From: an uncultured Planctomycetota bacterium
GTDB taxonomy: Bacteria; Planctomycetota; Phycisphaerae; SM23-33
Direction of reading: 5' to 3'
Length of the DNA stretch: 64,000 nucleotides
Assembly: GCA_903892515.1 (NCBI GenBank)
Contig: CAITIS010000067.1
Coordinates: 1,347-65,346, forward strand
Under the pieces are notes generated by a model. It searched no databases. It was not told where the DNA came from and saw only the letters and a program-made list of their open reading frames with translations. Numbering within the stretch: position 1 is the first letter of the stretch; the number at the start of each line of letters is the position of its first letter. Position numbers and translations under genes: made by a program. Of this stretch, positions 2,098-60,389 are shown piece after piece.

Positions 2098-3537
2098 ATG
2101 CCGACTACCCGGACTCCGCGCGTTGCCCTGGTGCATGACTGGCTGGTCGGCATGCGCGGTGGCGAGGCCGTTTTGGAGGAGCTTTGCCGGTTGTTCCCCC
2201 AGGCTGAAGTTTTCACGCTCTTTCATGGCCCCGGCTCGGTGAGTGAGACGATCGAGCGGCACCGGATTCACGCCAGTTGCCTCAATAGGACGCTGTTGCG
2301 CCGCCACTACCGCCACCTGCTGCCGCTGATGCCCTGGGCCATCGAGAAGATGGACGTCAGCGACTTTGACATTGTTATTGCGTCGAGCCACTGCGTCGCC
2401 CATGGCATCGGCGGCACCGGCCGGTTCGACCGCAAGCTCACCGATGAGCGGCCGGGGCAGCTGCGCATCAGCTATTGCCACACGCCCATGCGGTACGCGT
2501 GGTCGGCTACCGACGAGTACGCGCGCAGCGGGTTTCTCAGCGGCTTGGCGCTGCGGACAGTGGCGGGCTCGCTGCGAAAATGGGATCGTCGCGCTGCTCT
2601 GTCGGTGGATTTGTTCATCGCCAATAGTCAGAACGTCGCCGACAGGATTGGGCGATTCTATGGCCGGCCGGCGGATGTGCTGTACGCGCCGGTGGAGGCA
2701 GAGTACTTCTGCCCCGCCGACGTGGCACGCGAGGATTTCTACCTTGTCGTGGCCGCCAATGCCCCGTACAAACGCATCGATCAAGCCATCGCCGCCGCGC
2801 GACAACTTGGCCGGCGGCTGGTCATTGCCGGGCCGGGGTACAAGACCGGGGCACTAGGATGCGTTTCGCCGTGCCGCCCCTTCGGGGCTCATAACTCCAG
2901 CGAGCCTTACCGGGGGCTCACGCCCCCGGCTACAATCGTTCCGGCCCTTCGGGCCTCAGCGGGGCCTCGAACGCGTGACGATCTGCACTCCGCGTCGCCT
3001 CCAATCGAACGCCGAACGGAACGCGTAGGTGAATCCCAATCTGAACATGGCGTTGAATCCCAATCTGAGCGTGGAACTGAATCCCGATCAGAACGCGGAA
3101 TCAAATCCCGGTCAGAACATGAAATGCCACACCGGCATGAACCGGAGATTCTTGGCGCCGTGGCGCGCGGGCCGCTGCGGGAGCTGTACCGTTCCGCCCG
3201 GGCGGTGCTGATGCCTGGCGAGGAGGATTTCGGCATCGCCGCCGTCGAGGCCATGGGCTCCGGCTGTCCCGTCATCGCCTATGCTGCCGGCGGGGCCCTG
3301 GAAACCGTCCGCGACGTGCGGCAGAACGTGGCCAATCCCACCGGCCTGTTGTATAAGCGGCAGGACGTGGAGTCGCTGGCCGAGGCGATGCTCGAATTGG
3401 AAGGCCTGACCGACCGCTTCGTGCCCTCGCAGATGCACGAGTGGGCGCGGCGCTTCTCGCCTGAGCAATTCCGCGCCGGTTTCCAGCGGATCGTCGGGCC
3501 CCTGATGCAAGAACGAAATTGGACCTGTCCATGGTGA
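2098..3537 (+). CDS. Glycosyltransferase family 4 (GT-B) with a ~100-aa in-frame insertion in the C-terminal Rossmann domain
   Basis: N-terminal GT4 domain, then DFYLVVAANAPYKRIDQAIAAARQLGRRLVIAGPG ... EDFGIAAVEAMGSGCPVIAYAAGGALETV (E-x7-E-like GT4 motif). The insertion at ~2850-3140 carries a REP-like hairpin element plus a 24-bp x4 tandem repeat. Confidence 0.75.
   Translation: MPTTRTPRVALVHDWLVGMRGGEAVLEELCRLFPQAEVFTLFHGPGSVSETIERHRIHASCLNRTLLRRHYRHLLPLMPWAIEKMDVSDFDIVIASSHCVAHGIGGTGRFDRKLTDERPGQLRISYCHTPMRYAWSATDEYARSGFLSGLALRTVAGSLRKWDRRAALSVDLFIANSQNVADRIGRFYGRPADVLYAPVEAEYFCPADVAREDFYLVVAANAPYKRIDQAIAAARQLGRRLVIAGPGYKTGALGCVSPCRPFGAHNSSEPYRGLTPPATIVPALRASAGPRTRDDLHSASPPIERRTERVGESQSEHGVESQSERGTESRSERGIKSRSEHEMPHRHEPEILGAVARGPLRELYRSARAVLMPGEEDFGIAAVEAMGSGCPVIAYAAGGALETVRDVRQNVANPTGLLYKRQDVESLAEAMLELEGLTDRFVPSQMHEWARRFSPEQFRAGFQRIVGPLMQERNWTCPW
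2869..2957. repeat. GC-rich multi-hairpin repeat element (family 4) lying inside the GT4 coding sequence; second copy at 42962..43045
   Basis: Shares ...cgccccNtcggggctc...gggctcRcgcccNcggctacaatcgttccggcccttcgggcctc with 42962-43045 (~75% identity). Internal hairpins: gcccc-ttc-ggggc, ccggggg-ctcac-gcccccgg, ggccc-ttcg-ggcc. Confidence 0.6.
3007..3126 (+). repeat. 24-bp tandem repeat, 4 clear units plus one degenerate, encoding (E/K)S(Q/R)SE(H/R)G(V/T/I)-type octapeptides in-frame within GT4
   Basis: gaatcccaatctgaacatggcgtt / gaatcccaatctgagcgtggaact / gaatcccgatcagaacgcggaatc / aaatcccggtcagaacatgaaatg. Confidence 0.7.
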
Positions 3538-7489: not shown

Positions 7490-8548
7490 ATGGATTCGGG
7501 AGCTCATAGAATGGCCTTTAGGGTTGCTCAGACAACATTGTCCGCTCTTATGGTGCTGGCTTGGGTGGCAGGATGCCAGAAGCCCGAGGCCAGCCCTCTC
7601 GTCCCTGCGCATCAGGCCAGCAGTTATTACGTCGAAGGCCAGTTGGCCATGGATCGTCAGGACTATGACGCCGCCCTGGCGGAACTGCGAAAGGCCATCG
7701 CGGCCGATCCTTCGCTGTCGGTGGCCCACGCCGCCATCGGCGATATCTACCGCAAGCAAGGCAAGTTAGAAGAAGCCGCCAGCGCCTACGAGCAGGCCGT
7801 CACCACCGACCCGTCCTCCTTCCGGCCACAGTACAACCTTGGCGTCGTCTACCAGGCGCTGGCCGATGCCGCCAAAGACGCCCAGGCCGGGGCCGAGTAC
7901 ATCCAGAAGGCCATCGATACCTACGTCAAGGCCCTGGAGATTCAGCCGGGCGATTTTGACGCCAATTTGAACCTCTGCTCCTGCTACTTCCAGGAAGGCA
8001 AGTACGACCTGGCCGAGAAGTACTGCAAGGGCGCCATCCAGGCCGACCCGAAAAACCCAGGCGGACCGTTCAATCTGGGCGTGATCTACAAGCAGATGGA
8101 CCGCCCCTACGATGCCATCCGTGCCTTCAAAGACTCGCTCGAACTGGACATCAACCAGCCACGGCTGCTCGTAGAACTGGGCAACGTGTACATGAAGCTT
8201 GACCGTCTCAAGGACGCCCAGAAGGCGTTTGAACTGGCCACGCAGCAAGACGCTGAGAACGCCGATGCCTGGGAGCAGATGGGCCAGGTCTACTACCATC
8301 AGCAGCGCTATGATGAGGCGGTCAAGGCCTATGAGAAGGCCATCACGCTGAATCCCAAAAGTTCCTCGGCCTATCGCGGGCTGGGTGTGGTCTATATGAC
8401 GCAGTTCATCAATCAGCCGGGCGAGCCGGGGCTGCGTGAAAAAGGTCTGGAGGCCTGGAATCTGTCGTTGGAGTACAACTCTAACCAGGAGGACCTTGTG
8501 AAGTTGGTTCGGAAGTACACGCCGACGTTGTCGAAGCCGTCGTTGTAA
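7490..8548 (+). CDS. Tetratricopeptide-repeat lipoprotein
   Basis: Signal peptide plus lipobox (LAWVAGC). Multiple TPR-like A-x-x-Y/A repeats (AYEQAVTTDP, YVKALEIQP, KAYEKAITLNP). Likely start at the MAFRV ATG at 7511. Confidence 0.7.
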   Translation: MDSGAHRMAFRVAQTTLSALMVLAWVAGCQKPEASPLVPAHQASSYYVEGQLAMDRQDYDAALAELRKAIAADPSLSVAHAAIGDIYRKQGKLEEAASAYEQAVTTDPSSFRPQYNLGVVYQALADAAKDAQAGAEYIQKAIDTYVKALEIQPGDFDANLNLCSCYFQEGKYDLAEKYCKGAIQADPKNPGGPFNLGVIYKQMDRPYDAIRAFKDSLELDINQPRLLVELGNVYMKLDRLKDAQKAFELATQQDAENADAWEQMGQVYYHQQRYDEAVKAYEKAITLNPKSSSAYRGLGVVYMTQFINQPGEPGLREKGLEAWNLSLEYNSNQEDLVKLVRKYTPTLSKPSL

Positions 8549-8603: not shown

Positions 8604-9398
8604 ATGCCTCGAATTGCACGAATAGTGCTGCCAAACGTCCCTCACCTCGTCGGGCAGCGCGGCAACCGTGGCGAGAAGCTTTTCCCCGCCCCGGGCGACC
8701 GCGAGCTCTACCTTGAAATCCTCAACGAGAACCTCAAGGGCTGCGCGGTCAAGCTTTGGGCTTACCGGCTGGAGAATACCGAGGTCTTGCTGTTGCTGCA
8801 GCCGGCGGACCTGCACGGCATGGCCAAATGCCTGCGGAACGCCCACGGCCTGTATAGCCAGACCATCAACCGGCGAGTTACCGCCACAGGCCACCTCTTC
8901 CAGGGCCGGTTCTACAGTTGCCCCCTCGACGCCGAGTATGCGATGGAGGCGCTAAAGCACCTGGACCGCGCGACCGGCACCGCCCAGGCCTCGCGCCAGT
9001 GCCGCTTGCATCGTCTCGGCCAGCCGTCGGAAGGCCACGACGGAGTCTGCGCCTTCTGCGGCATGCTGGACGAGAGCATCCCCTACCCCAAGATGGCATC
9101 AGAACTGCCCCAGTGGCTCGCACGCCCGGCAGATCCGGCCATCGTGCGGGCTGTGCTGGGTCGGTTGCGCGTCGGCAAGCCTGCGGGCTCCCCCAGCTTC
9201 ATCAGGGAGGTCGAGGTGCTGACGGGGCTGAACCTGTCTCGCCGCCGCGGCCGGCCGAGAAAGCTGCTTGTGCAGGCGAGCGTGCCCGAAGTCATGCCGG
9301 CCAAGTCGCAGCCAGTCGTCGAAGTGCCGGAAACGCTGCCGACGGCGCCGCCTGTGGGCGTCTACATCGCACAGAATCCAAACGTGCCCATTTCGTGA
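8604..9398 (+). CDS. RAYT-like / IS200 (Y1 HUH-family) transposase homologue with degenerate HUH motif
   Basis: MPRIARIVLPNVPHLVGQRGNRGEKLF...YLEIL...AYRLENTEVLLLL...GHLFQGRFYS aligns to the RAYT/TnpA(IS200) N-terminus and Q-G-R-F block. The expected HvH is replaced by TEV. A REP hairpin lies 42 bp downstream. Confidence 0.65.
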   Translation: MPRIARIVLPNVPHLVGQRGNRGEKLFPAPGDRELYLEILNENLKGCAVKLWAYRLENTEVLLLLQPADLHGMAKCLRNAHGLYSQTINRRVTATGHLFQGRFYSCPLDAEYAMEALKHLDRATGTAQASRQCRLHRLGQPSEGHDGVCAFCGMLDESIPYPKMASELPQWLARPADPAIVRAVLGRLRVGKPAGSPSFIREVEVLTGLNLSRRRGRPRKLLVQASVPEVMPAKSQPVVEVPETLPTAPPVGVYIAQNPNVPIS

Positions 9399-9439
9399 CT
9401 TCGTTTCCAGGGATGAGTTTCTAGAACCGATATGCCTTC

Positions 9440-9480
9440 GTGGCACAGCCGCCCTCGGCTGTGGATGTGGCGGTCATATC
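9440..9480 (+). repeat. REP-like palindromic element (family 1): GTGGCACAGCCG-CCCT-CGGCTGTGG plus conserved 3' flank
   Basis: 8-9 bp stem, 4-nt loop. Same 25-mer at 43089-43113 (+) and 17839-17863 (inverted). Extended flank conserved: aTGTgGCGGtCAtAT versus cTGTtGCGGcCAcAT. Confidence 0.75.
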
Positions 9481-9592
9481 CGGTGTCTTCTCACGCGGTT
9501 GCACGCCCGAGGGCGGACGCACCACGCCGACGACGCAGTTCCCGGCCACGGGCTGCGGCCCAGTCAAACCCCCTCACTTTGCAGCTACCGTC

Positions 9593-9662: not shown

Positions 9663-11528
9663 ATGACCCAGTACGCTGAGTTGTTCGCCTCGAAGCTGGA
9701 CAAGATCAGTCTCGAAAAGCTGCTGGCGTTGAAGAACGCCAAGCTCGAATCATTCCTGGCCGACGCCATTGAACTCTGCCAGCCCGCCAAGGTGGTAGTC
9801 TTCGACGACTCCCAGGCCGATATTGCGCGAATTCGCCAGTTGGCGTTGGAGAATCACGAAGAGGCCCCGCTCAGCACGCCCGGCCACACGATCCACTTCG
9901 ACAGCGCCAGCGACCTGGCCCGCGACCCCAAGGCCACCAAGTACCTGCTGCCTCCCGGCGTGACGCTGGGCAAGAGCCTCAACGCCACCGGCCGAGAGGA
10001 AGGCCTGGCTGAAATCCGCGGCTATCTCAAGGGCAGCATGAAGGATCGCACGATGATCCTGTGCTTCCTGAGCCTGGGCCCGACCGAGTCGCAGTTCTCC
10101 ATCCCGTGCGCCCAGATCACCGATTCGGGCTACGTCGCCCACAGCGAAATGCTGCTCTACCGCCCCGGCTACGCGCAGTTCCGGCGGATTTCCGGCAGCG
10201 GCGATTTCTTCCGCTTCCTGCACAGTGCCGGCCGGGTCGGGCCTGACCTGACCAGCATCGACCACGACAAGCGCCGCATCTACATCGACATCGCCGAGGA
10301 CATGGTCTACACCGTCAACACGCAGTACGCCGGCAACACGGTGGGCCTGAAGAAGCTGGCCTTGCGTCTGGCCATTCGCAAAGCCGACCGGGAAGGCTGG
10401 CTGGCTGAGCACATGTTCCTGATGGGCGTCAAGGGCCCCAATGGCCGGAAGACGTACTTCTCCGGTGCGTACCCTTCGGCCTGCGGCAAGACCTCCACGG
10501 CCATGGTTCCGGGCGAAACAATCATTGGCGACGACCTGGCCTACTTCAAGATCATCGACGGTCAGATTCGCGCCGCCAACGTGGAAAAGGGCATCTTCGG
10601 CATCGTCGAGGACGTCAACGCCAAAGACGACCCGGTGATCTGGAACGTCCTGAACAACCCCGGCGAGGTGATCTTCTCCAACGTGCTGGTCAAGGACGGC
10701 AAGCCGTACTGGGCCGGCATGGGCGTGCCGACGCCGACCGAAGGCAAGAACAGCCACGGCCAGTGGACGCAGGGCAAGATTGGCCCCAACGGCAAAGTCA
10801 TCCCGATTTCCGACAAGAACGCCCGCTACACGATCTCGCTGAGCTACCTGGCCAACCTGGACGAGCAGGCCAATAACCCCAAGGGCGTGGCGATCGAGGG
10901 CATCTTCTACGGCGGACGCGACAGCGACACGTGGGTGCCGGTGCAGGAGAGCTTCGACTGGGCTCACGGCATCGTCTGCTACGGCGCGTCGCTGGAGAGC
11001 GAAAGCACCGGCGCCACGATTGGCGCCACCGGCGTTCGCAACTTCGACGTGATGAGCATTCTGCAGTTCCTGGCCATTCCGGTGGGCAAGTACGTGCAGA
11101 ACAACCTCGACTTCGGCAAGACGGTCAAGCGGCCAAGGATCTTCGCGACGAATTACTTCCTCAAGAACAAGCAAGGCCAGTACCTCAACGGCAAGCTGGA
11201 CAAGTCCGTGTGGATCAAGTGGGCGGAGATGCGCGTGCATGGCGACGCCGATGCCATCGAGGGCCCGACCGGCAATCTGCCCAAGTACGAAGACCTGGCC
11301 AAGCTGTTCAAGCAGGTTCTCAAGAAGGATTACACTAGGCAGCAGTACGTCGAGCAGTTCACGGTGCGGATCCCAGAGAACCTGGCCAAGCTCGACCGCA
11401 TCGAGAAGGTATACCGCGAGATCACTGACACGCCGGCGGAGGTCTTCAAGAACCTGTCGGCTCAGCGGCAGCGGCTGCTGGAATTGCAGAAGGCCAAGGG
11501 CGACCACGTCAGCCCGATGGACCTGTAA
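9663..11528 (+). CDS. pckG: Phosphoenolpyruvate carboxykinase (GTP)
   Basis: Kinase-1a motif YPSACGKTS. Matches GTP-PEPCK family blocks across the full 621-aa length. Confidence 0.92.
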   Translation: MTQYAELFASKLDKISLEKLLALKNAKLESFLADAIELCQPAKVVVFDDSQADIARIRQLALENHEEAPLSTPGHTIHFDSASDLARDPKATKYLLPPGVTLGKSLNATGREEGLAEIRGYLKGSMKDRTMILCFLSLGPTESQFSIPCAQITDSGYVAHSEMLLYRPGYAQFRRISGSGDFFRFLHSAGRVGPDLTSIDHDKRRIYIDIAEDMVYTVNTQYAGNTVGLKKLALRLAIRKADREGWLAEHMFLMGVKGPNGRKTYFSGAYPSACGKTSTAMVPGETIIGDDLAYFKIIDGQIRAANVEKGIFGIVEDVNAKDDPVIWNVLNNPGEVIFSNVLVKDGKPYWAGMGVPTPTEGKNSHGQWTQGKIGPNGKVIPISDKNARYTISLSYLANLDEQANNPKGVAIEGIFYGGRDSDTWVPVQESFDWAHGIVCYGASLESESTGATIGATGVRNFDVMSILQFLAIPVGKYVQNNLDFGKTVKRPRIFATNYFLKNKQGQYLNGKLDKSVWIKWAEMRVHGDADAIEGPTGNLPKYEDLAKLFKQVLKKDYTRQQYVEQFTVRIPENLAKLDRIEKVYREITDTPAEVFKNLSAQRQRLLELQKAKGDHVSPMDL

Positions 11529-11610: not shown

Positions 11611-14130
11611 TCAGTCGTCTCTACTGCCCGATGATCGGCCGCTTCCCGTGCCCGTCCCGCCGCCTGCTGCGGATGACCCCAGTGCCGTTGCGATGGCCTG
11701 GGCCTGGGTCGAAGTCAGCGAGATGCCCCTCATGGCCGATACGCTGCTGATGGCCGAAGTGATCTGCGACGCGCTGCTTCCGCGCACGCTCGATGACGCC
11801 AGAGCACGGTGACAGGAGGCACAGGTGCTCGCATACAGGCTGGCACCGTCAGTGGTTGTTGTTCCGCCGCCAGTGGTGCCGCCGCCAGTCGTTCCGCCAC
11901 CCGTGCTGGACGTTCCCAGTGCGGTTGCGATGGCCTGGACTTGCGCCGCGGTCAGCGAGGAAAGGCTCCTCATGCCCGAGACGCTGCTGATGGCCGAAGT
12001 GATCTGCGACGCTGTGCGCCCACGCTTGGCGGAGGAAGCCAGCGCCCCGTGACAAGAGGCACAATCACTGGCATACAGCGTGGCCCCGTCGGTGGTTGTC
12101 GTCCCGCCACCAGTGGTCCCGCCGCCCGTGCCGGACGTTCCCAGCGCCGTGGCGATGGCTTGGATTTGCGTCGCGGTCAGCGTCGAAAGGCTCCTCATGC
12201 CCGAGACGCTGCTGATGGCCGAAGTGATCTGCGACGCCGTGCGCCCACGCTTGGCGGAGGAAGCCAGCGCCCCGTGACAAGAGGCACAATCACTGGCATA
12301 CAGCGTGGCCCCGTCGGTGGTTGTCGTTCCGCCACCAGTGGTGCCGCCGCCGGTCGTCCCACTGACGCCAGTGTGGGGTGGCATCTGGCCTACACGTCCG
12401 TCGGTGTGACACACCTGGCAGTGGTTCTGCCCCAGTGGCCGATTCGTGCCCTGTAGCGCCATGACCTGCTGATTGTCAACGGCCTGCATCGAAGGATACC
12501 ACGAGTGCGGGCTGTTGTGGCAGGCCGCACAGTGCAGACCGCCGTGCCCGGTGGCCTGGCGGAAGAGTTGCGTGCCCGTGTCGAACTGGCTGCCGTGGCA
12601 CTGAGAGCACTTGGGCTCTTGCAGCCACGCTTGCCGGCCATTCTTCAGGCCCGTGGCCATAGCCGTCAGATCGCCGTGACAGGTATCGCACTTGGGATCG
12701 GTGCCCACCGGCCCCATGCCCGGCAGAGTGCTGCGGTTGCACTGGGTCTTGGCGCCGGGATGACAATCGTAGCAGGCCGGCTGGACCGCGATGGTGCTGT
12801 GCTTGTCGTGCATCGACTGCGATAGCGACGGCACGCCGGTCATGCCAGCCATCTTCAGGGCGTTGTCCTGGTGGCACTTGGAGCACAGCACAGGCCGGCT
12901 GGCCATGAGCGTGGTGCCGTGGGTACGGTCGTGCAGGGTCAGGATGTTCGACTCCACCGTCCCGTTGAGCCCCACTGCTGCCACCGCGCCGGGGGCGTGG
13001 CACTTCTGGCAGTTCATCTCATCGGAGGTGGGAATAACAACCTTGGCCGTGTTGCCGGCGCTGAGTTTGACCGTGGCCACCTGCAATGGATTCCACACCT
13101 TCTGATCGTTGTACGGTGTAATGGGAATTCCGCTGGCCTCGAAGATGCCGCCGGCGATCGGCACGGCCGAGCCGCTGAGCTTGTTGCCCGTCAGGCCCGT
13201 GTCCGGCGCCAGGGCCACGCCAAAGAGCTGCTGGGCGTAAGTCCAGAAGTCAATCTTGTTCGAGGACGTGGTGTTGCCGTCGATGGAATAGGTAACCGTT
13301 ACTCCGCTGGTGATCACCTGCGGCTCGGCCGCCCGCCCGATGACCTGCACATGGAGGTCATTGTACGGCGGCAGAACGCATAGTTCGGCCGAGCGAGAGC
13401 TGAAGCAGTGCATGCCCAGGTCATTCCAGCCGATCATCATGTACGTGCCTGCGGCACCGGTGCTGCCAGTGCCACCTTCGCCGTCATCACTCCCGCTCGT
13501 CGTCCCGCCCGTGCCTGTGCCGCCAGTACCTGTGCTGGCCGTGCCCAAGGCCGTGGCAATAGCTTGGATTTGCGTGGAAGTCAGCGAAAGGTTCCTCATG
13601 GCCGAGATGCTGCTGATGGCCGAAGTGATCTGCGAGGCGGTGCGCCCGCGTTTGGAAGAGGAGGCAATCGCGCCGTGACACGAGGCGCAATCGCTGGCAT
13701 AGAGCGTGGCCCCGTCCGTGGCGGTGGTTCCGCCGCCGGTAGTGCCGCCACCAGTGGTCGTTCCGCCCCCCGTGGTTCCGCCGCCGGTCGTCGTGCCGGA
13801 CGTGCCCAAGGCCGTGGCAATGGCCTGGACTTGCGTGGAGGTCAGCGATGAAAGCCCGCGCATGCCCGAGACGCTGCTGATGGCCGAAGTGATCTGGGAG
13901 GCGCTGCGCCCGCGCTTCGAGGAGGACGCCAGGGCCCCGTGACAAGAGGCACAATCGCTGGCGTACAATGTCGCCCCGTCCGTGGCCGTGGCTCCACCCC
14001 CAGTCGTCCCCCCGCTCTGCTGGGCCGATGCCGTACACGGCCAGCCGATCACCGACCATCCCGCCAGCGCCATCAGCGCCAGCAACATCATCGTTGTCCT
14101 TCTGTTCATGACAATTGCCTTTCCATGCAT
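11611..14130 (-). CDS. Modular multiheme cytochrome c: 12 CxxCH motifs arranged as 2 mono-haem class-I cyt c modules, a 7-haem core, then 3 mono-haem modules, joined by Gly/Thr linkers
   Basis: Signal peptide MNRRTTMMLLALMALAGWSVIGWP (probable true start at 14109). Repeated module DGATLYASDCASCHGALASSSKRGRSASQITSAISSVSGMRGLS.LTSTQ.QAIATALG x5. Core contains CQKCH, CSKCH, CYDCH, CDTCH, CSQCH, CAACH, CQVCH. Confidence 0.8.
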   Translation of the reverse strand: MHGKAIVMNRRTTMMLLALMALAGWSVIGWPCTASAQQSGGTTGGGATATDGATLYASDCASCHGALASSSKRGRSASQITSAISSVSGMRGLSSLTSTQVQAIATALGTSGTTTGGGTTGGGTTTGGGTTGGGTTATDGATLYASDCASCHGAIASSSKRGRTASQITSAISSISAMRNLSLTSTQIQAIATALGTASTGTGGTGTGGTTSGSDDGEGGTGSTGAAGTYMMIGWNDLGMHCFSSRSAELCVLPPYNDLHVQVIGRAAEPQVITSGVTVTYSIDGNTTSSNKIDFWTYAQQLFGVALAPDTGLTGNKLSGSAVPIAGGIFEASGIPITPYNDQKVWNPLQVATVKLSAGNTAKVVIPTSDEMNCQKCHAPGAVAAVGLNGTVESNILTLHDRTHGTTLMASRPVLCSKCHQDNALKMAGMTGVPSLSQSMHDKHSTIAVQPACYDCHPGAKTQCNRSTLPGMGPVGTDPKCDTCHGDLTAMATGLKNGRQAWLQEPKCSQCHGSQFDTGTQLFRQATGHGGLHCAACHNSPHSWYPSMQAVDNQQVMALQGTNRPLGQNHCQVCHTDGRVGQMPPHTGVSGTTGGGTTGGGTTTTDGATLYASDCASCHGALASSAKRGRTASQITSAISSVSGMRSLSTLTATQIQAIATALGTSGTGGGTTGGGTTTTDGATLYASDCASCHGALASSAKRGRTASQITSAISSVSGMRSLSSLTAAQVQAIATALGTSSTGGGTTGGGTTGGGTTTTDGASLYASTCASCHRALASSSVRGSSASQITSAISSVSAMRGISLTSTQAQAIATALGSSAAGGGTGTGSGRSSGSRDD

Positions 14131-14795: not shown

Positions 14796-15944
14796 GTGAG
14801 TTTACAGGACAATGCATTCATGCTCCAGGCCCTGGAGTTGGCGGCAATGGGCCGCGGCGCGGTCGAACCCAACCCGATGGTCGGCGCTGTCATCGTCAGA
14901 GATGGCGCCGTGCTGGGTGAGGGGTTCCATCACCGTTTCGGCGGGCCGCACGCGGAAGTCGAAGCCATCGCCGACGCTCGCCGGGCCGGGCATAACCTGG
15001 CCGGGGCCACCATGTACGTTACGCTGGAGCCCTGCTGCCATTACGGCAAGACGCCGCCCTGCACGCAGGCGGTCATCGCCTCGGGCGTCACCCGCGTGGT
15101 CGTGGCCATGCAGGATCCCGACGAGCGCGTGAGTGGCCAGGGCCTGGCTGAATTGCGCTCCGCCGGCATCGAGGTGGTCGCGGGCGTGCAGGAACAATCG
15201 GCCTGGCGACTGCTGGGGGCCTACATCAAGTTGCGGACAAAGCGTCGCCCCTGGGTCATCTGCAAGTGGGCCCAAAGCCTGGACGGCAAGATCGCCCCCG
15301 CCAGCCGACAGAGCAAGTGGATCACCGGCGAACTGGCCCGAGCGAGAGCCCATCAACTCCGCAGCCAGTGCCAGGGCGTATGCGTCGGTGTGGGAACCGT
15401 CCTGGCCGACGATCCCCTGCTGACCAACCGCAGCGGCGCAGGCCGACAGCCGACGCGGCTGGTGCTAGACGCAAGGCTGCGAACGCCGAGCGAGTCTCAA
15501 CTTCTCCGCACTGCCGGCGAAGTGCCCCTGATCGTGGCCACGGGCCCAGGGGCTTCGCCGGCCCAGGCCGACGCCATCCAACGCGCCGGTGGTGAGGTGC
15601 TAAGACTAAATGAGCAGGCCGGCGAACTTGACCTAGGACAGCTTCTGGATGAACTGGGCCGCCGGCAGTGGACGCGTCTGCTTGTCGAAGGCGGCCAGGC
15701 TGTGCTGCGGTCATTCTTGCGGCAGCAGTTGGCGGATGAACTGGCCATCTTCATTGCCCCGTGCATGATCGGTTCTGACGGGCTGAGCGTCATGGACTGG
15801 CTTCACGCCGAGCAGATGTCGCAGGCACTCCGCCTGCCGCTTGCGGAGACCGAACGACTGGGACCCGACCTGCTGCTGCGATTCCGGTTGGATGTAATTA
15901 GCAGGGATACATGGGATGCACGGGATGAAGAGATTTGTGATTGA
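14796..15944 (+). CDS. ribD: Bifunctional riboflavin biosynthesis protein RibD (pyrimidine deaminase / reductase)
   Basis: CDA zinc motif HAEVEAI...PCCHYGKTPPC. C-terminal RibD_C reductase domain. Confidence 0.9.
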   Translation: MSLQDNAFMLQALELAAMGRGAVEPNPMVGAVIVRDGAVLGEGFHHRFGGPHAEVEAIADARRAGHNLAGATMYVTLEPCCHYGKTPPCTQAVIASGVTRVVVAMQDPDERVSGQGLAELRSAGIEVVAGVQEQSAWRLLGAYIKLRTKRRPWVICKWAQSLDGKIAPASRQSKWITGELARARAHQLRSQCQGVCVGVGTVLADDPLLTNRSGAGRQPTRLVLDARLRTPSESQLLRTAGEVPLIVATGPGASPAQADAIQRAGGEVLRLNEQAGELDLGQLLDELGRRQWTRLLVEGGQAVLRSFLRQQLADELAIFIAPCMIGSDGLSVMDWLHAEQMSQALRLPLAETERLGPDLLLRFRLDVISRDTWDARDEEICD

Positions 15945-16084
15945 AAGTTTTTGATTGGGGATTGGGCCGCATCAAGCAAGCTCACTGGCGAAACTATCGC
16001 GAACAGCGCTTGCCAATCAACGCTTTCCAATCAAAGATATCCTGCATCCCTGCTGATTGTTGGAACTATGGAAAGGTACTGAGT

Positions 16085-17098: not shown

Positions 17099-17235
17099 AG
17101 AGCTTGGCGACAGGAGCAGGCTTGAAACCATGCTACAGGTGCTGTAACCGTAGCACGGGCGTCTCGCCCGTGACCACCTGACGCCGGAATGAAGAAGCTC
17201 GTGGGCGAGACGCCCATGCTACGTTTGAAACTGCT

Positions 17236-17727
17236 TTAGTACTGTTTCCGGCCCTTGACGCGCTGCATGTCGCGGTCGTGCTCGCGTTTCTGGATGGACT
17301 CCCGTTTGTCGAAGTCACGCTTGCCCGTGGCTGCGGCGATCTCGCACTTGGCCCAGCCATCCTTGAAGTAGATAGCCAGCGGGATCAGCGTGTGCCCCTT
17401 CTGGGCGACGTGCACCTTGAGCTGCTCGATCTGGCGTTTGTGCAGCAGCAGCCGGCGGTCGCGCAGCGGGTCGTGCTGCAACTGCCCCACCGCCTGCGGA
17501 TACACGGCGATATTCGCGCCGCATAAAAAGACTTGGTCGCCCCGCAGCATCGCGTACGCGCCGTCAAGGCTGGCGCTGCTGGAACGCAGGCTTTTGACTT
17601 CCGTGCCGGTTAACTCCATGCCGGCTTCGACTTTCTCAATGATGTGGTAATCGAAGTGCGCGCGGCGATTCCCGATCCGCGGCGTTCGCGGAGCCTGATC
17701 GTCCTGCTTGGCGCTCTTCTTGGCCAT
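17236..17727 (-). CDS. smpB: SsrA-binding protein SmpB
   Basis: IGNRRAHFDYHIIEKVEAGMELTGTEVKSLR...DGWAKCEIAAATGKRDFDKR. Start at the MAKK ATG at 17725-17727. Confidence 0.9.
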   Translation of the reverse strand: MAKKSAKQDDQAPRTPRIGNRRAHFDYHIIEKVEAGMELTGTEVKSLRSSSASLDGAYAMLRGDQVFLCGANIAVYPQAVGQLQHDPLRDRRLLLHKRQIEQLKVHVAQKGHTLIPLAIYFKDGWAKCEIAAATGKRDFDKRESIQKREHDRDMQRVKGRKQY

Positions 17728-17795
17728 GCGGTCATCATACAGCCGATGGGCTCGTCTGCCCAATGGGACTTTGCCGCAACTGGTTTCATAAGCGG

Positions 17796-17821
17796 CTCAC
17801 GTCCGCTCTCGGACGTGAGCC
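17796..17821. terminator. Hairpin gctcacgtccg-ctct-cggacgtgagc downstream of the hsp20 operon and upstream of smpB
   Basis: 11-bp perfect stem. No clear U-tract. Confidence 0.35.
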
Positions 17822-17838
17822 GCACGATGTCGCGAAAT

Positions 17839-17863
17839 CCACAGCCGAGGGCGGCTGTGCCAC
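17839..17863 (-). repeat. REP family-1 copy (inverted orientation)
   Basis: ccacagccgagggcggctgtgccac is the exact reverse complement of the 25-mer at 9440 and 43089. Confidence 0.75.
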
Positions 17864-42840: not shown

Positions 42841-42960
42841 TACGAAATTCAGACCCGAAGGGTCGGTACTACTGTAGCCGGGGGGCGTAAGCCCCCGGTG
42901 TGCATGGGCTTGTGCCTGAGCCCCGAAGGGGCGACACAGTTGGCTTGCCCAACAACTCTG
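42841..42960. repeat. GC-rich hairpin array (at least 4 stem-loops) preceding the family-4 and family-1 repeat copies
   Basis: gaccc-gaa-gggtc; ccggggg-gcgtaag-cccccgg; gcccc-gaa-ggggc; gcccc-gtc-ggggc. Confidence 0.5.
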
Positions 42961-42961
42961 T

Positions 42962-43045
42962 CGCCCCGTCGGGGCTCTGTGCCACTGGGGCGGTCTCCGT
43001 GGGCTCGCGCCCACGGCTACAATCGTTCCGGCCCTCCGGGCCTCC
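42962..43045. repeat. Family-4 hairpin element (intergenic copy; paralogue of the copy inside GT4 at 2869-2957)
   Basis: Shared 3' block ggctacaatcgttccggccctYcgggcctc. ccgtgggc-tcgc-gcccacgg. Confidence 0.6.
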
Positions 43046-43088: not shown

Positions 43089-43130
43089 GTGGCACAGCCG
43101 CCCTCGGCTGTGGCTGTTGCGGCCACATCG
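43089..43130 (+). repeat. REP family-1 copy
   Basis: gtggcacagccgccctcggctgtgg plus conserved flank ctgttgcggccacat. Confidence 0.75.
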
Positions 43131-49693: not shown

Positions 49694-49717
49694 GCGGACT
49701 TATGTACGTTCCGGATG

Positions 49718-49766
49718 GTGGAACAGGCCTTCAGCCTGTTCGGCACAGCCTAAAAGGCTGTGCCAC
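49718..49766 (+). repeat. Twin-hairpin REP-like element (family 2), copy 1
   Basis: gtggaacaggc-cttca-gcctgttc + ggcacagcc-taaaa-ggctgtgcc + acc. Confidence 0.7.
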
Positions 49767-49795
49767 CGCCAAAGACTTATGTAGGGCCGCTTAGA

Positions 49796-50357: not shown

Positions 50358-50391
50358 CGCGTGGCCGCTGGACGCCGCGGCCACGGCACCC
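50358..50391 (+). repeat. Hairpin repeat (family 3), copy 1: cgcgtggccgc-tggacgc-cgcggccacggcaccc
   Basis: Identical 34-mer at 60247-60280. Confidence 0.7.
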
Positions 50392-56836: not shown

Positions 56837-56946
56837 TTTAGCAGGGATGCTGGGGATACAGGGGATGAAGGCATTTCGGTTCAACGCATGTACGGAACTG
56901 CATTTATAAAGCAATGTCTTTATCCCATGCATCCCCAGCATCCCTG
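56837..56946. repeat. 20-bp perfect inverted repeat (ttagcagggatgctggggat ... atccccagcatccctgctaa) flanking a ~70-bp AT-richer core, between nth (+) and the VOC gene (-)
   Basis: Observed directly. Could be a long-stem terminator or a MITE-like element. Confidence 0.5.
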
Positions 56947-56953
56947 CTAACAC

Positions 56954-60246: not shown

Positions 60247-60341
60247 ATCGCGTGGCCGCTGGACGCCGCGGCCACGGCACCCGGCGTCACGTGGTGGCAC
60301 AGCCTTTCAGGCTGTGCCGCACAGGCTAAAAGCCTGTGCCA
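60247..60341 (+). repeat. Composite repeat: family-3 hairpin (60247-60280) directly followed by a family-2 twin hairpin (60292-60341)
   Basis: cgcgtggccgctggacgccgcggccacggcaccc ... gtggcacagcc-tttca-ggctgtgcc + gcacaggc-taaaa-gcctgtgc + cacc. Confidence 0.7.
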
Positions 60342-60389
60342 CCTCACCCAGAAACTACAAAAGTTTCCTTAGCTGGACCGCGAGTTCGT

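Follow-up and report, generated by a model that had tools for sequence, protein, structure and literature searches.

A RAYT-like protein without the catalytic residues, apparently maintained in uncultured Planctomycetota and probably not the partner of its neighboring REP hairpin

REP-associated tyrosine transposases (RAYTs; REP, repetitive extragenic palindrome) are the classic example of a transposase that its bacterial host has retained, and in the accepted picture they are active enzymes that move REPs. The TnpA proteins of the IS200/IS605 insertion sequences (ISs) are active enzymes of approximately 130–150 aa, encoded in multi-copy elements that have subterminal hairpins at the left and right ends (LE/RE) and often carry tnpB. 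For the RAYT-like TnpA_Y1 subclass 2.1, equivalent to Group 1 of Bertels, Quentin et al. (2018, PMC6006769) list in their Table 1 the motifs NHVH, WQ or FQ, and Y[IV]xxNP, an 'SS' after the Tyr helix, an extra C-terminal domain, and 238 aa as the median length. In that survey, subclass 2.1 genes showed no association with REPs, and the members have different residues in the region recognizing the GTAG foot (PMC6006769). Y1 sequences without the core motifs were assumed to be non-functional and were removed from it. In Bertels et al. (2017), Group 1 is weakly associated with repeated 16-mers. Here we describe a gene whose product has lost these core motifs, together with the REP hairpin lying next to it, in a 64,000-nt stretch of contig CAITIS010000067.1 (GCA_903892515.1) from an uncultured Planctomycetota bacterium. 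The whole stretch is called the window. L-numbers denote fetched loci or contigs (215 in all) and P-numbers denote proteins, the window protein being P0001.

The open reading frame (ORF) in question starts with ATG and encodes 264 aa with the N-terminus MPRIARIVLPNVPHLVGQRGN. Its parts are as follows, where HUH stands for His-hydrophobic-His, pLDDT for the predicted local distance difference test score of the AlphaFold2 (AF2) model, and dN/dS for the ratio of nonsynonymous to synonymous substitution rates.

8604–9398, plus strand: gene for a putatively catalytically dead protein of the Y1/HUH fold, a derivative of the TnpA_Y1 subclass 2.1 type, judging from the ORF, the orthologue alignment, hhalign, and AF2 with Foldseek
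8604–8966, plus strand: Y1 core domain, residues 1–121, β1-αA-β2-β3-αC-β4-αD (pLDDT 94–97, secondary structure, dN/dS 0.10 against the closest orthologue)
8781–8789, plus strand: codons 60–62, Glu-Val-Leu in place of the HUH motif (alignment, hhalign); Glu60 is nearly invariant in the dead clade
8958–8960, plus strand: codon 119, His in place of the catalytic Tyr, with the subsequent NPVRAx deleted (alignment, 4ER8 anchoring, hhalign)
9096–9239, plus strand: C-terminal three-helix domain, approximately residues 165–212 (..GKPAGS..F...VE.LTGLNLS), common to active relatives (helices, conserved columns)
9249–9263, plus strand: GRPRK motif, AT-hook-like, with G216, R217, and P218 invariant
9270–9395, plus strand: Pro/Val-rich tail of approximately 42 aa, probably disordered (pLDDT 57–59, dN/dS 0.54)

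The catalytic columns were set by aligning the active relative P0117 to E. coli TnpA_REP (4ER8), which places H-V-H on H59/H61 and the Tyr on Y115. At the position of HUH, a metal-binding motif on β3, the window protein has N58-T59-E60-V61-L62-L63, whereas active relatives have N-H-V-H-F/L. His119 of the window protein corresponds through P0117 to the catalytic Tyr115 of 4ER8, and the six residues after it (NPVRAx), including N-P of the Y-x3-N-P signature on αD, are deleted. The residues invariant in active relatives are H15, H60, H62, Y119, N123, and P124, and every one of them is replaced or deleted in the dead proteins. The profile of the dead clade aligns with that of the active relatives by hhalign at 100% probability (E = 4.2e-67) over 221 columns, including the C-terminal domain and GRPRK, and E-V-x sits on H-V-H. 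The initial annotation had read a degenerate HUH motif (NTEVLLLL) from the letters and asked for an alignment of the HUH motif and the catalytic Tyr; this alignment agrees with its reading, since the His residues are not displaced to elsewhere in the protein, and adds the replacement of the Tyr by His119. The main segments compare as follows.

Active PHHVTQRGN, dead PHL..QRGN: the second His is gone
Active N-H-V-H-F, dead x-E-V-x-L: both HUH His residues are gone
Active GHLWQGRFYSCPLD, dead GHLFQGRFYSCPLD: W is replaced by F
Active RYVE(R/N)NPVRA, dead R(Y/H/R/W)(V/L)ER-F: the six residues NPVRAx are deleted

Glu60, which takes the place of the first His, shows at least 90% conservation within the dead clade, while the second His position (L/F/R/M/T) and the Tyr position (Y/H/R/W) vary. 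H14, H81, and H97 are kept and are equally conserved in active relatives. Among the residues with which E. coli TnpA_REP recognizes the GT[AG]G foot (W94, Q95, E/D100, H101, and R104), W94, E/D100, H101, and R104 correspond to F, S, C, and D/L in the window protein, where the region reads F99-Q100 ... S105-C106 with no Arg. The loss of the catalytic residues suggests that the window protein can no longer cut or join DNA.

The overall fold is retained. The AF2 model has a pLDDT of 84 overall and 94–97 over residues 11–120, and Foldseek gives probability 1.0 to IS608 TnpA, ISDra2 TnpA, and the RAYT 4ER8 (2VJV, 2XMA, and 4ER8), and also matches IS200 transposases. Together with the profile alignment to active relatives, this agrees with the original call of a RAYT/IS200 TnpA-like ORF. 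PDB sequence searches with the dead-clade profile and with a mixed profile gave nothing useful, and a single active relative matches 4ER8 by sequence at E = 0.11 only, so the link of the dead protein to solved structures rests on the fold search. The database search returned 284 relatives in two tiers. The first comprises approximately 25 intact orthologues from uncultured Planctomycetota at 45–72% identity, which carry the same lesions. The second is a large set at approximately 35% identity with PF01797, which is active judging from its motifs and matches NCBIfam NF047646 (REP-associated tyrosine transposase) at E about 1e-20. Dead and active proteins are 32–35% identical (closest by phmmer, E about 1e-34). 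The window protein scores 13.6 bits against Pfam Y1_Tnp, below the cutoff of 23, and an NCBIfam search with dead members including the window protein gave no match.

The C-terminal half should be noted, since its three helices (H167–173, H178–190, and H197–207 in the model) and the GRPRK motif are common to dead and active proteins. Pfam AT_hook matches the GRPRK region of relatives below threshold (E 0.05–0.1), and no helix-turn-helix family in Pfam matches the C-terminal domain. The Pro/Val-rich tail is absent from other orthologues, which end within 10 aa past GRPRK. At 985–1057 of L209, an asparagine-synthase-like frame (..NGEIYNFLELRGQLETHGHRF..) begins mid-gene exactly at the called stop of P0002, the closest orthologue; the long C-terminal tail of P0002 may thus be an annotation or assembly artefact overlapping asnB, which weakens the dN/dS value of the tail. 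At 9000–9059 of the window (residues 133–152), a C-x3-H-x7-H-x3-C-x2-C pattern is kept between the window protein and P0002 in a region rewritten relative to other orthologues, at moderate model confidence, and could be a small metal-binding insert.

The active relatives match the Table 1 features of TnpA_Y1 subclass 2.1, an assignment made by motif and architecture against the published table (PMC6006769) and not with the hidden Markov models of its authors. The 'SS' proximal motif (SSA) is kept in most members of the dead clade. This clade is narrow: when 1.84 billion cluster representatives were searched exhaustively with a profile, only 3–4 of them (50% clusters) fell in it, followed by a large score gap, and named genomes with members are two (uncultured Planctomycetaceae and Planctomycetales metagenome-assembled genomes, MAGs). 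Outside the clade, the 150 best profile-search representatives include approximately 30 further proteins without HUH and/or Y-NP in which the scaffold and GRPRK are kept. On a rough neighbor-joining (NJ) distance tree of 262 sequences, the sampling of which is skewed to dead members, no fewer than 14 state changes are required to account for the distribution of HUH loss. Because of these further motif-less proteins and state changes, inactivation seems to be recurrent in the subclass 2.1-type family.

The dead gene occupies a conserved locus. In the window, its 5' neighbor across a 55-nt spacer is a TPR lipoprotein gene (7490–8548, plus strand), with rnpA and yidD on the minus strand further upstream, and its 3' neighbor is pckG for GTP-dependent PEP carboxykinase (PEPCK; 9663–11528, plus strand). 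The gene adjoins the TPR-rnpA-yidD cluster in the window, L006, L007/L008, L210, and L211, and pckG in the window, L004/L009, and L005. Pairwise identities of the neighbors and of the dead protein are in step.

PEPCK 64–74%, dead protein 53–71%
TPR protein 47–91%, dead protein 50–89%
RnpA 49–87%, dead protein 50–89%

This divergence is therefore as predicted by vertical inheritance over a deep split. By the Nei–Gojobori method on the least saturated orthologue pairs, dN/dS of the whole protein is 0.19 (P0013/P0018), 0.25 (P0004/P0005), and 0.24 (window/P0002). Within the window branch, the value rises from 0.10 in the Y1 core and 0.13 in the C-terminal domain plus GRPRK to 0.40 in the middle region and 0.54 in the tail. 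Directly 5' of the gene, TTGACA-N17-TA(t/a)(c/g)CT-N6/7-ATG is found in all eight orthologues outside the window/P0002 branch (L004, L005, L006, L007, L010, L210, L211, and L212, 45 nt 5' of the start), the upstream genes of which differ. By its spacing, this element looks like a near-consensus σ70-type promoter that would give a leaderless mRNA. The window and L209 lack it, and a consensus scan upstream of the window gene found no recognizable promoter. The window/P0002 branch is the most derived, with the Tyr replaced by His, the middle region rewritten, the Pro/Val-rich tail added, and the conserved promoter lost.

The shared lesions in orthologues, the synteny, the congruent divergence, the dN/dS well below 1, and the conserved promoter indicate that the dead protein is encoded by a maintained gene and not by a decaying copy. 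The earlier proposal of a domesticated protein rather than an active transposase is upheld by the same evidence. As to orientation, the window gene lies on the same strand as the TPR gene and pckG, while at all other loci the dead gene and the TPR gene converge or the dead gene and pckG diverge; an inversion of this one gene at its site thus seems to have taken place in the window lineage, with a decayed REPIN (inverted REP doublet) at one junction. A tblastn search found no second Y1 gene in the window, where the dead gene is thus single-copy, and the locus has no tnpB neighbor. An origin is not apparent from the GC skew of the window, although rnpA and yidD are nearby.

The REP hairpin begins 41 nt past the stop codon of the dead gene. 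The 25-mer GTGGCACAGCCGCCCTCGGCTGTGG occurs exactly three times in the window and has no match in 100 dinucleotide shuffles of it. The copies and their partners are as follows.

9440–9464, plus strand: canonical REP unit with a GTGG foot and an 8-bp stem, CACAGCCG / loop CCCT / CGGCTGTG; not cognate to the neighboring gene
9502–9525, minus strand: degenerate inverted REP partner GTGGTGCGTCCGCCCTCGGGCGTG, identical at 18/24 positions and still with the GTGG foot; its score exceeds the 99th percentile of the null
17839–17863, minus strand: second exact REP copy, between hsp20 and smpB
17792–17823, plus strand: hairpin with a 14-bp stem by the second copy, a REP variant with compensated stem changes, inverted
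43089–43113, plus strand: third exact REP copy, in a REP-rich intergenic region 3' of an ArsP/HMA permease gene

All three exact copies are intergenic with a GTGG foot, and the coordinates and orientations given for them at first reading are correct. The pair at 9440–9464 and 9502–9525 reads as a decayed REPIN-like doublet between the dead gene and pckG, and the second copy has a degenerate inverted partner at 17798–17817. The REP at 9440 has no T-run and is not terminator-like; a weak terminator-like hairpin follows at 9462–9482. The 20-nt REP core CACAGCCGCCCTCGGCTGTG is found in at least 120 JGI metagenome contigs (L089–L208) with a GC content of 0.40–0.71. Among the contigs listed, 126 of 142 REP copies have a conserved 5' flank (T-GTGG in 111 and GTAG in 15) while the 3' flank is not conserved, and 13 of 18 close pairs are inverted with a spacing of 31–61 nt. 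By sequence, the 25-mer is a canonical REP/REPIN family unit, as first supposed.

This REP has a RAYT of its own. In each of the six contigs examined (L104, L141, L202, L213, L214, and L215), an intact short RAYT of 150–200 aa is flanked by the REP or a co-varying variant. A tblastn search of REP contigs shows REPs on both sides of the RAYT in L104, and the RAYTs of L202 and L141 are also directly flanked. These proteins have PDHVHM, VWQ(A/D)ES(L/F)DH.LR, and Y-x3-NP, with the residues for foot recognition (W, Q, D, H, and R) in place (W-Q-x4-D-H-x2-R in the P0278/L202 type), and pass NF047646 at 85.4 and 83.5 bits against a cutoff of 80. More than 1,400 relatives were found. In L213 (a Phycisphaerales MAG), 13 REP units surround the RAYT gene, and in L215 (a Sedimentisphaerales MAG) the co-varying variant GTAGCCCAGCCGCCCCCGGCTGGG lies on both sides. 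L214 encodes the intact 168-aa RAYT P0278, preceded by two REPs, TTCGTGGCACAGCCGCCCTCGGCTGTGG identical to that of the window and the CCCC-loop variant GTGGCACAGCCGCCCCCGGCTGTG, and followed by one inverted GTAG copy. No pairwise similarity of the window protein to the P0278/L202-type RAYTs is detectable.

L214 is from ENA sample ERZ18626762, and P0278 is also recorded in ERZ1426628; both samples carry P0001. The GC content of L214 (0.644) is similar to that of the window (0.633), and besides the exact REP, a second repeat, TTAGCAGGGATGCWGGGGAT.. (30 nt), is common to the window and L214 and found in no other of the 215 fetched loci. Because of these shared samples, GC content, and repeats, the window genome very probably encodes the P0278-type canonical RAYT, with the window REPs as its substrates.

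The cognate RAYT family is spread over Planctomycetota, Thermodesulfobacteriota, and other phyla, and the identical REP core occurs in many environments, always with a GT[AG]G foot. A REP-RAYT pair so conserved across distant hosts suggests horizontal spread or a very strong constraint on the hairpin. In L104 (144–881), L202 (approximately 2790–3360, minus strand), and L213 (10001–10780), the RAYT ORFs extend into or through REPs, so that the termini are REP-encoded peptides (VAQPPSAV / TAEGGCAT), and several REPs lie inside the called RAYT ORF of L213.

The adjacency of the dead gene and the REP is unremarkable. The window has 16 GT[AG]G-plus-hairpin units of at least four families, where approximately 1.7 units are expected, in approximately 8 of its 50 or so intergenic regions; because of this density, one REP neighbor needs no special explanation, and the chance of a REP in at least one of the two flanks of a gene is approximately 0.28. 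No REP lies next to the dead gene in L004, L005, L007, L010, L210, L211, L212, or L209, where REP-type hairpins in the 8–10-kb flanks are at background density, almost none. The window REP sequence is absent from the orthologous loci. Cognate REPs on both sides of a gene (a REPtron) are not found here either: the REP is on the 3' side only, with none in the 55-nt upstream spacer. The initial annotation had placed the dead gene as still embedded in its REP family, which is not supported in view of the eight orthologous loci without an adjacent REP and of the other, intact RAYT that the REP flanks in 6/6 contigs. L006 departs from this pattern: both long intergenic flanks of its dead gene (7700–7900 and 8840–8920) are filled with GTAG-foot hairpins whose sequences are unrelated to the window REP. 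No other strict REP-type hairpins occur in this 16.6-kb locus.

We consider it probable that the dead protein is an exapted descendant of a long subclass 2.1/Group 1 RAYT-like Y1 transposase that now acts as a non-catalytic DNA binder, and that the REP is separate and moved by a P0278-type RAYT. The ancestor would have been one of the long, RAYT-like Y1 (HUH) transposases that carry the C-terminal domain. Its catalytic residues are lost throughout a small planctomycete clade, where the gene has stayed at one locus by vertical descent, is under purifying selection that weighs most on the dead core, and usually has a consensus promoter of its own. Its product may bind nucleic acid in a regulatory or architectural role through the old DNA-recognition surfaces, the Y1 surface contacting hairpins or single-stranded DNA and/or the C-terminal helices and AT-hook-like motif contacting duplex. 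Non-catalytic DNA binding seems the most likely role. The REP at 9440 would be one of many REP insertions into intergenic DNA, separate from the dead gene, and may serve as a 3' structure between that gene and pckG.

Several points weigh against this interpretation. The DNA-binding role is deduced entirely from the retained fold and domains, and near-invariant Glu60 at the first His position formally leaves room for some metal-dependent role. No common operator or hairpin near the orthologues was found by shared k-mers in the 150-nt flanks, where only the promoter hexamers recur. The L006 hairpins on both sides are a weak hint that keeps a REP link alive. The placement of L214 in the same genome relies on the samples and repeats in common rather than on a genome assembly, and the function of the most derived window/P0002 branch may have drifted. 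None of the rival explanations is favored by the data.

The dead protein may instead be an inhibitor of transposition or an immunity factor, a dead subunit of an obligate-dimer Y1 enzyme that poisons or competes with invading subclass 2.1-type transposases. Y1 transposases such as IS608 TnpA assemble their active sites in trans, and the whole scaffold and C-terminal domain are kept at 32–35% identity to active relatives. The repeated loss of HUH, with at least 14 state changes and approximately 30 further motif-less representatives, fits a repeatedly selected dominant-negative role. However, an active paralogue is not seen in the window or the orthologous loci, heterodimerization is doubtful at that identity to the nearest active proteins, and long vertical persistence at one locus points to a host function rather than an arms race. 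We regard this role as unlikely.

A REP-binding or REP-regulating protein, which would still recognize GTGG-CACAGCCG hairpins and adjust either REP function or the activity of the mobilizing RAYT, was the role suggested at first. The decayed REPIN 41 nt past the stop, the hairpins flanking the L006 orthologue, and the binding of hairpins by Y1 cores (4ER8 and IS608 complexes are among the Foldseek matches) are in line with it. Nevertheless, the REP has its own intact RAYT of another subfamily without pairwise similarity to the dead protein, and the residues at W94, E/D100, H101, and R104 are replaced. The parent subclass 2.1 is not REP-associated, the eight orthologous loci have no adjacent REP, and a REP neighbor arises by chance at the frequency given above. 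These observations make this role quite improbable, and the earlier suggestion is not supported.

That the gene is a non-functional relic, a decaying transposase pseudogene still open by chance, would be in line with the treatment of motif-less Y1 sequences in Quentin et al. (2018), and the window copy itself has a rewritten middle, an extra tail, and no recognizable promoter of its own. This explanation is very hard to reconcile with approximately 25 intact orthologues carrying the same lesions, dN/dS of 0.19–0.25 (0.10 for the core in the window branch), synteny, neighbor-congruent divergence, and a conserved promoter. An enzyme with an alternative catalytic constellation (e.g. Glu60 and other residues) and a nuclease or other activity is barely conceivable: Glu60 is at least 90% conserved and H14, H81, and H97 are kept, but the second His and Tyr positions are variable, the third metal ligand region (N-P) is deleted, and the retained His residues are equally conserved in active relatives, hence not new.

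The remaining repeats of the window are recorded here. The elements at 2910–2956 and 42997–43043 (both plus strand) score above the gathering threshold for Rfam RF01687 (Acido-Lenti-1 RNA), with an inverted partial copy at approximately 42851–42898. On the opposite strand they read GTAG plus CCGGGGGC/loop/GCCCCCGG, the canonical anatomy of a GTAG-foot REP, and are repeated in the window; the RF01687 'sRNA' motif here may be a REP family. At 17119–17253, just 3' of the smpB stop, lies an inverted pair of GTAG-CA(C/T)GGGCG-TCT-CGCCC.. hairpins with 51-nt arms that are 75% complementary, by sequence a REPIN-type pair from a fourth REP family. The smpB gene is read from the minus strand, and the REP at 17839 lies in its start-side flank. 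Inverted 51-nt REP dimers of a related family (GGTGG-CACAGCC-TTTCA-GGCTGTG-CC-GCACAGGC-TAAAA-GCCTGTGC-CACC), REPIN-like with a GTGG foot on each strand, are found at 49717–49767 and 60291–60343. An identical 26-nt hairpin, CGTGGCCGCTGGACGCCGCGGCCACG, occurs at 50360–50385 and 60251–60276, the second copy approximately 20 nt upstream of the doublet at 60291.

In L214, the entire REPtron (two REPs, P0278, and the inverted REP; 764–1633) lies between inverted repeats of approximately 30 nt, TTAGCAGGGATGCAGGGGATTCAGGGGATAAG. The same inverted pair is found at 56838–56950 of the window with 37 nt between the arms, resembling a miniature inverted-repeat transposable element or an 'empty' site, between convergent genes for endonuclease III-like and glyoxalase proteins, and a degenerate pair lies at 15898–15917 / 16037–16056. 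The unit bounded by these repeats could be a RAYT-carrying element with terminal inverted repeats; alternatively, the REPtron may sit inside repeats of another palindromic family. At 11611–14130 (minus strand), an 839-aa multi-heme cytochrome c (Cytochrome_CBB3, c3, c7, and MtrC-like matches) has tandem repeats of approximately 225 nt. Its assembly differs in the metagenome contigs L001 and L002, and the number of repeats may be variable or mis-assembled.

Contrary to the view that such sequences are non-functional, a motif-less Y1 lineage can be old and syntenic, have a conserved promoter, and be constrained by purifying selection, most of all in the dead core. What is new here is a selection-maintained lineage of the subclass 2.1 RAYT-like family without HUH and Tyr; in the literature searched, coverage of which is incomplete, such sequences are set aside as non-functional and no selection-maintained HUH-less RAYT-like clade was found described. 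A second, non-catalytic route of Y1-transposase exaptation is indicated, with a defined set of proteins to test. The locus also illustrates that a REP beside a RAYT-like gene does not make the two partners, the partner RAYT having been identified independently from metagenome contigs. More tentatively, subclass 2.1 could have repeatedly yielded dead, host-retained factors that bind DNA by structure or sequence, a TnpA(Y1) counterpart to the nuclease-dead TnpB regulators, of which the planctomycete clade would be the first well-supported example.

Compared with the known systems, the core of the window protein has its best structural matches in TnpA of the IS200/IS605 elements (IS608 and ISDra2), whereas its active site is dead and its gene is single-copy in the window, without subterminal hairpins or a tnpB neighbor, at a conserved chromosomal locus. 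With E. coli TnpA_REP and other classical RAYTs (4ER8; NF047646; subclasses 2.2, 2.4, 2.5, 2.7, and 2.8), it shares the Y1 fold, housekeeping-like vertical inheritance, and a single copy within the window. Unlike them, it lacks HUH, the Tyr, the GT[AG]G-recognition residues, a match to NF047646, and a REPtron, and it has a C-terminal domain that they do not. The P0278/L202-type RAYTs with GT[AG]G-CACAGCCG-CCCT-CGGCTGTG REPs are very probably encoded in the same genome and are the family that owns the hairpin beside the window gene, but they differ in their intact PDHVHM, WQ..DH..R, and Y-x3-NP motifs, their length of 150–200 aa, and REPs on both sides. TldR proteins are nuclease-dead, RNA-guided derivatives of TnpB with a RuvC fold. 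By analogy, these and other transposase-derived regulators resemble the window protein in an IS200/IS605-related origin, the loss of catalysis, and retention by the host, presumably for nucleic-acid recognition; the function of TldR is demonstrated, whereas that of the window protein is inferred. TnpA_Y1 subclass 2.1, including the 'TIRYT' proteins, is the closest by sequence, and shares the length class of approximately 220 aa (220–240), FQ/WQ, the 'SS' after αD, the extra C-terminal domain, and a gene that itself has no REP association. The window clade is set apart from it by the loss of NHVH and Y-x3-NP and by vertical inheritance at a fixed locus in a narrow clade of planctomycetes.

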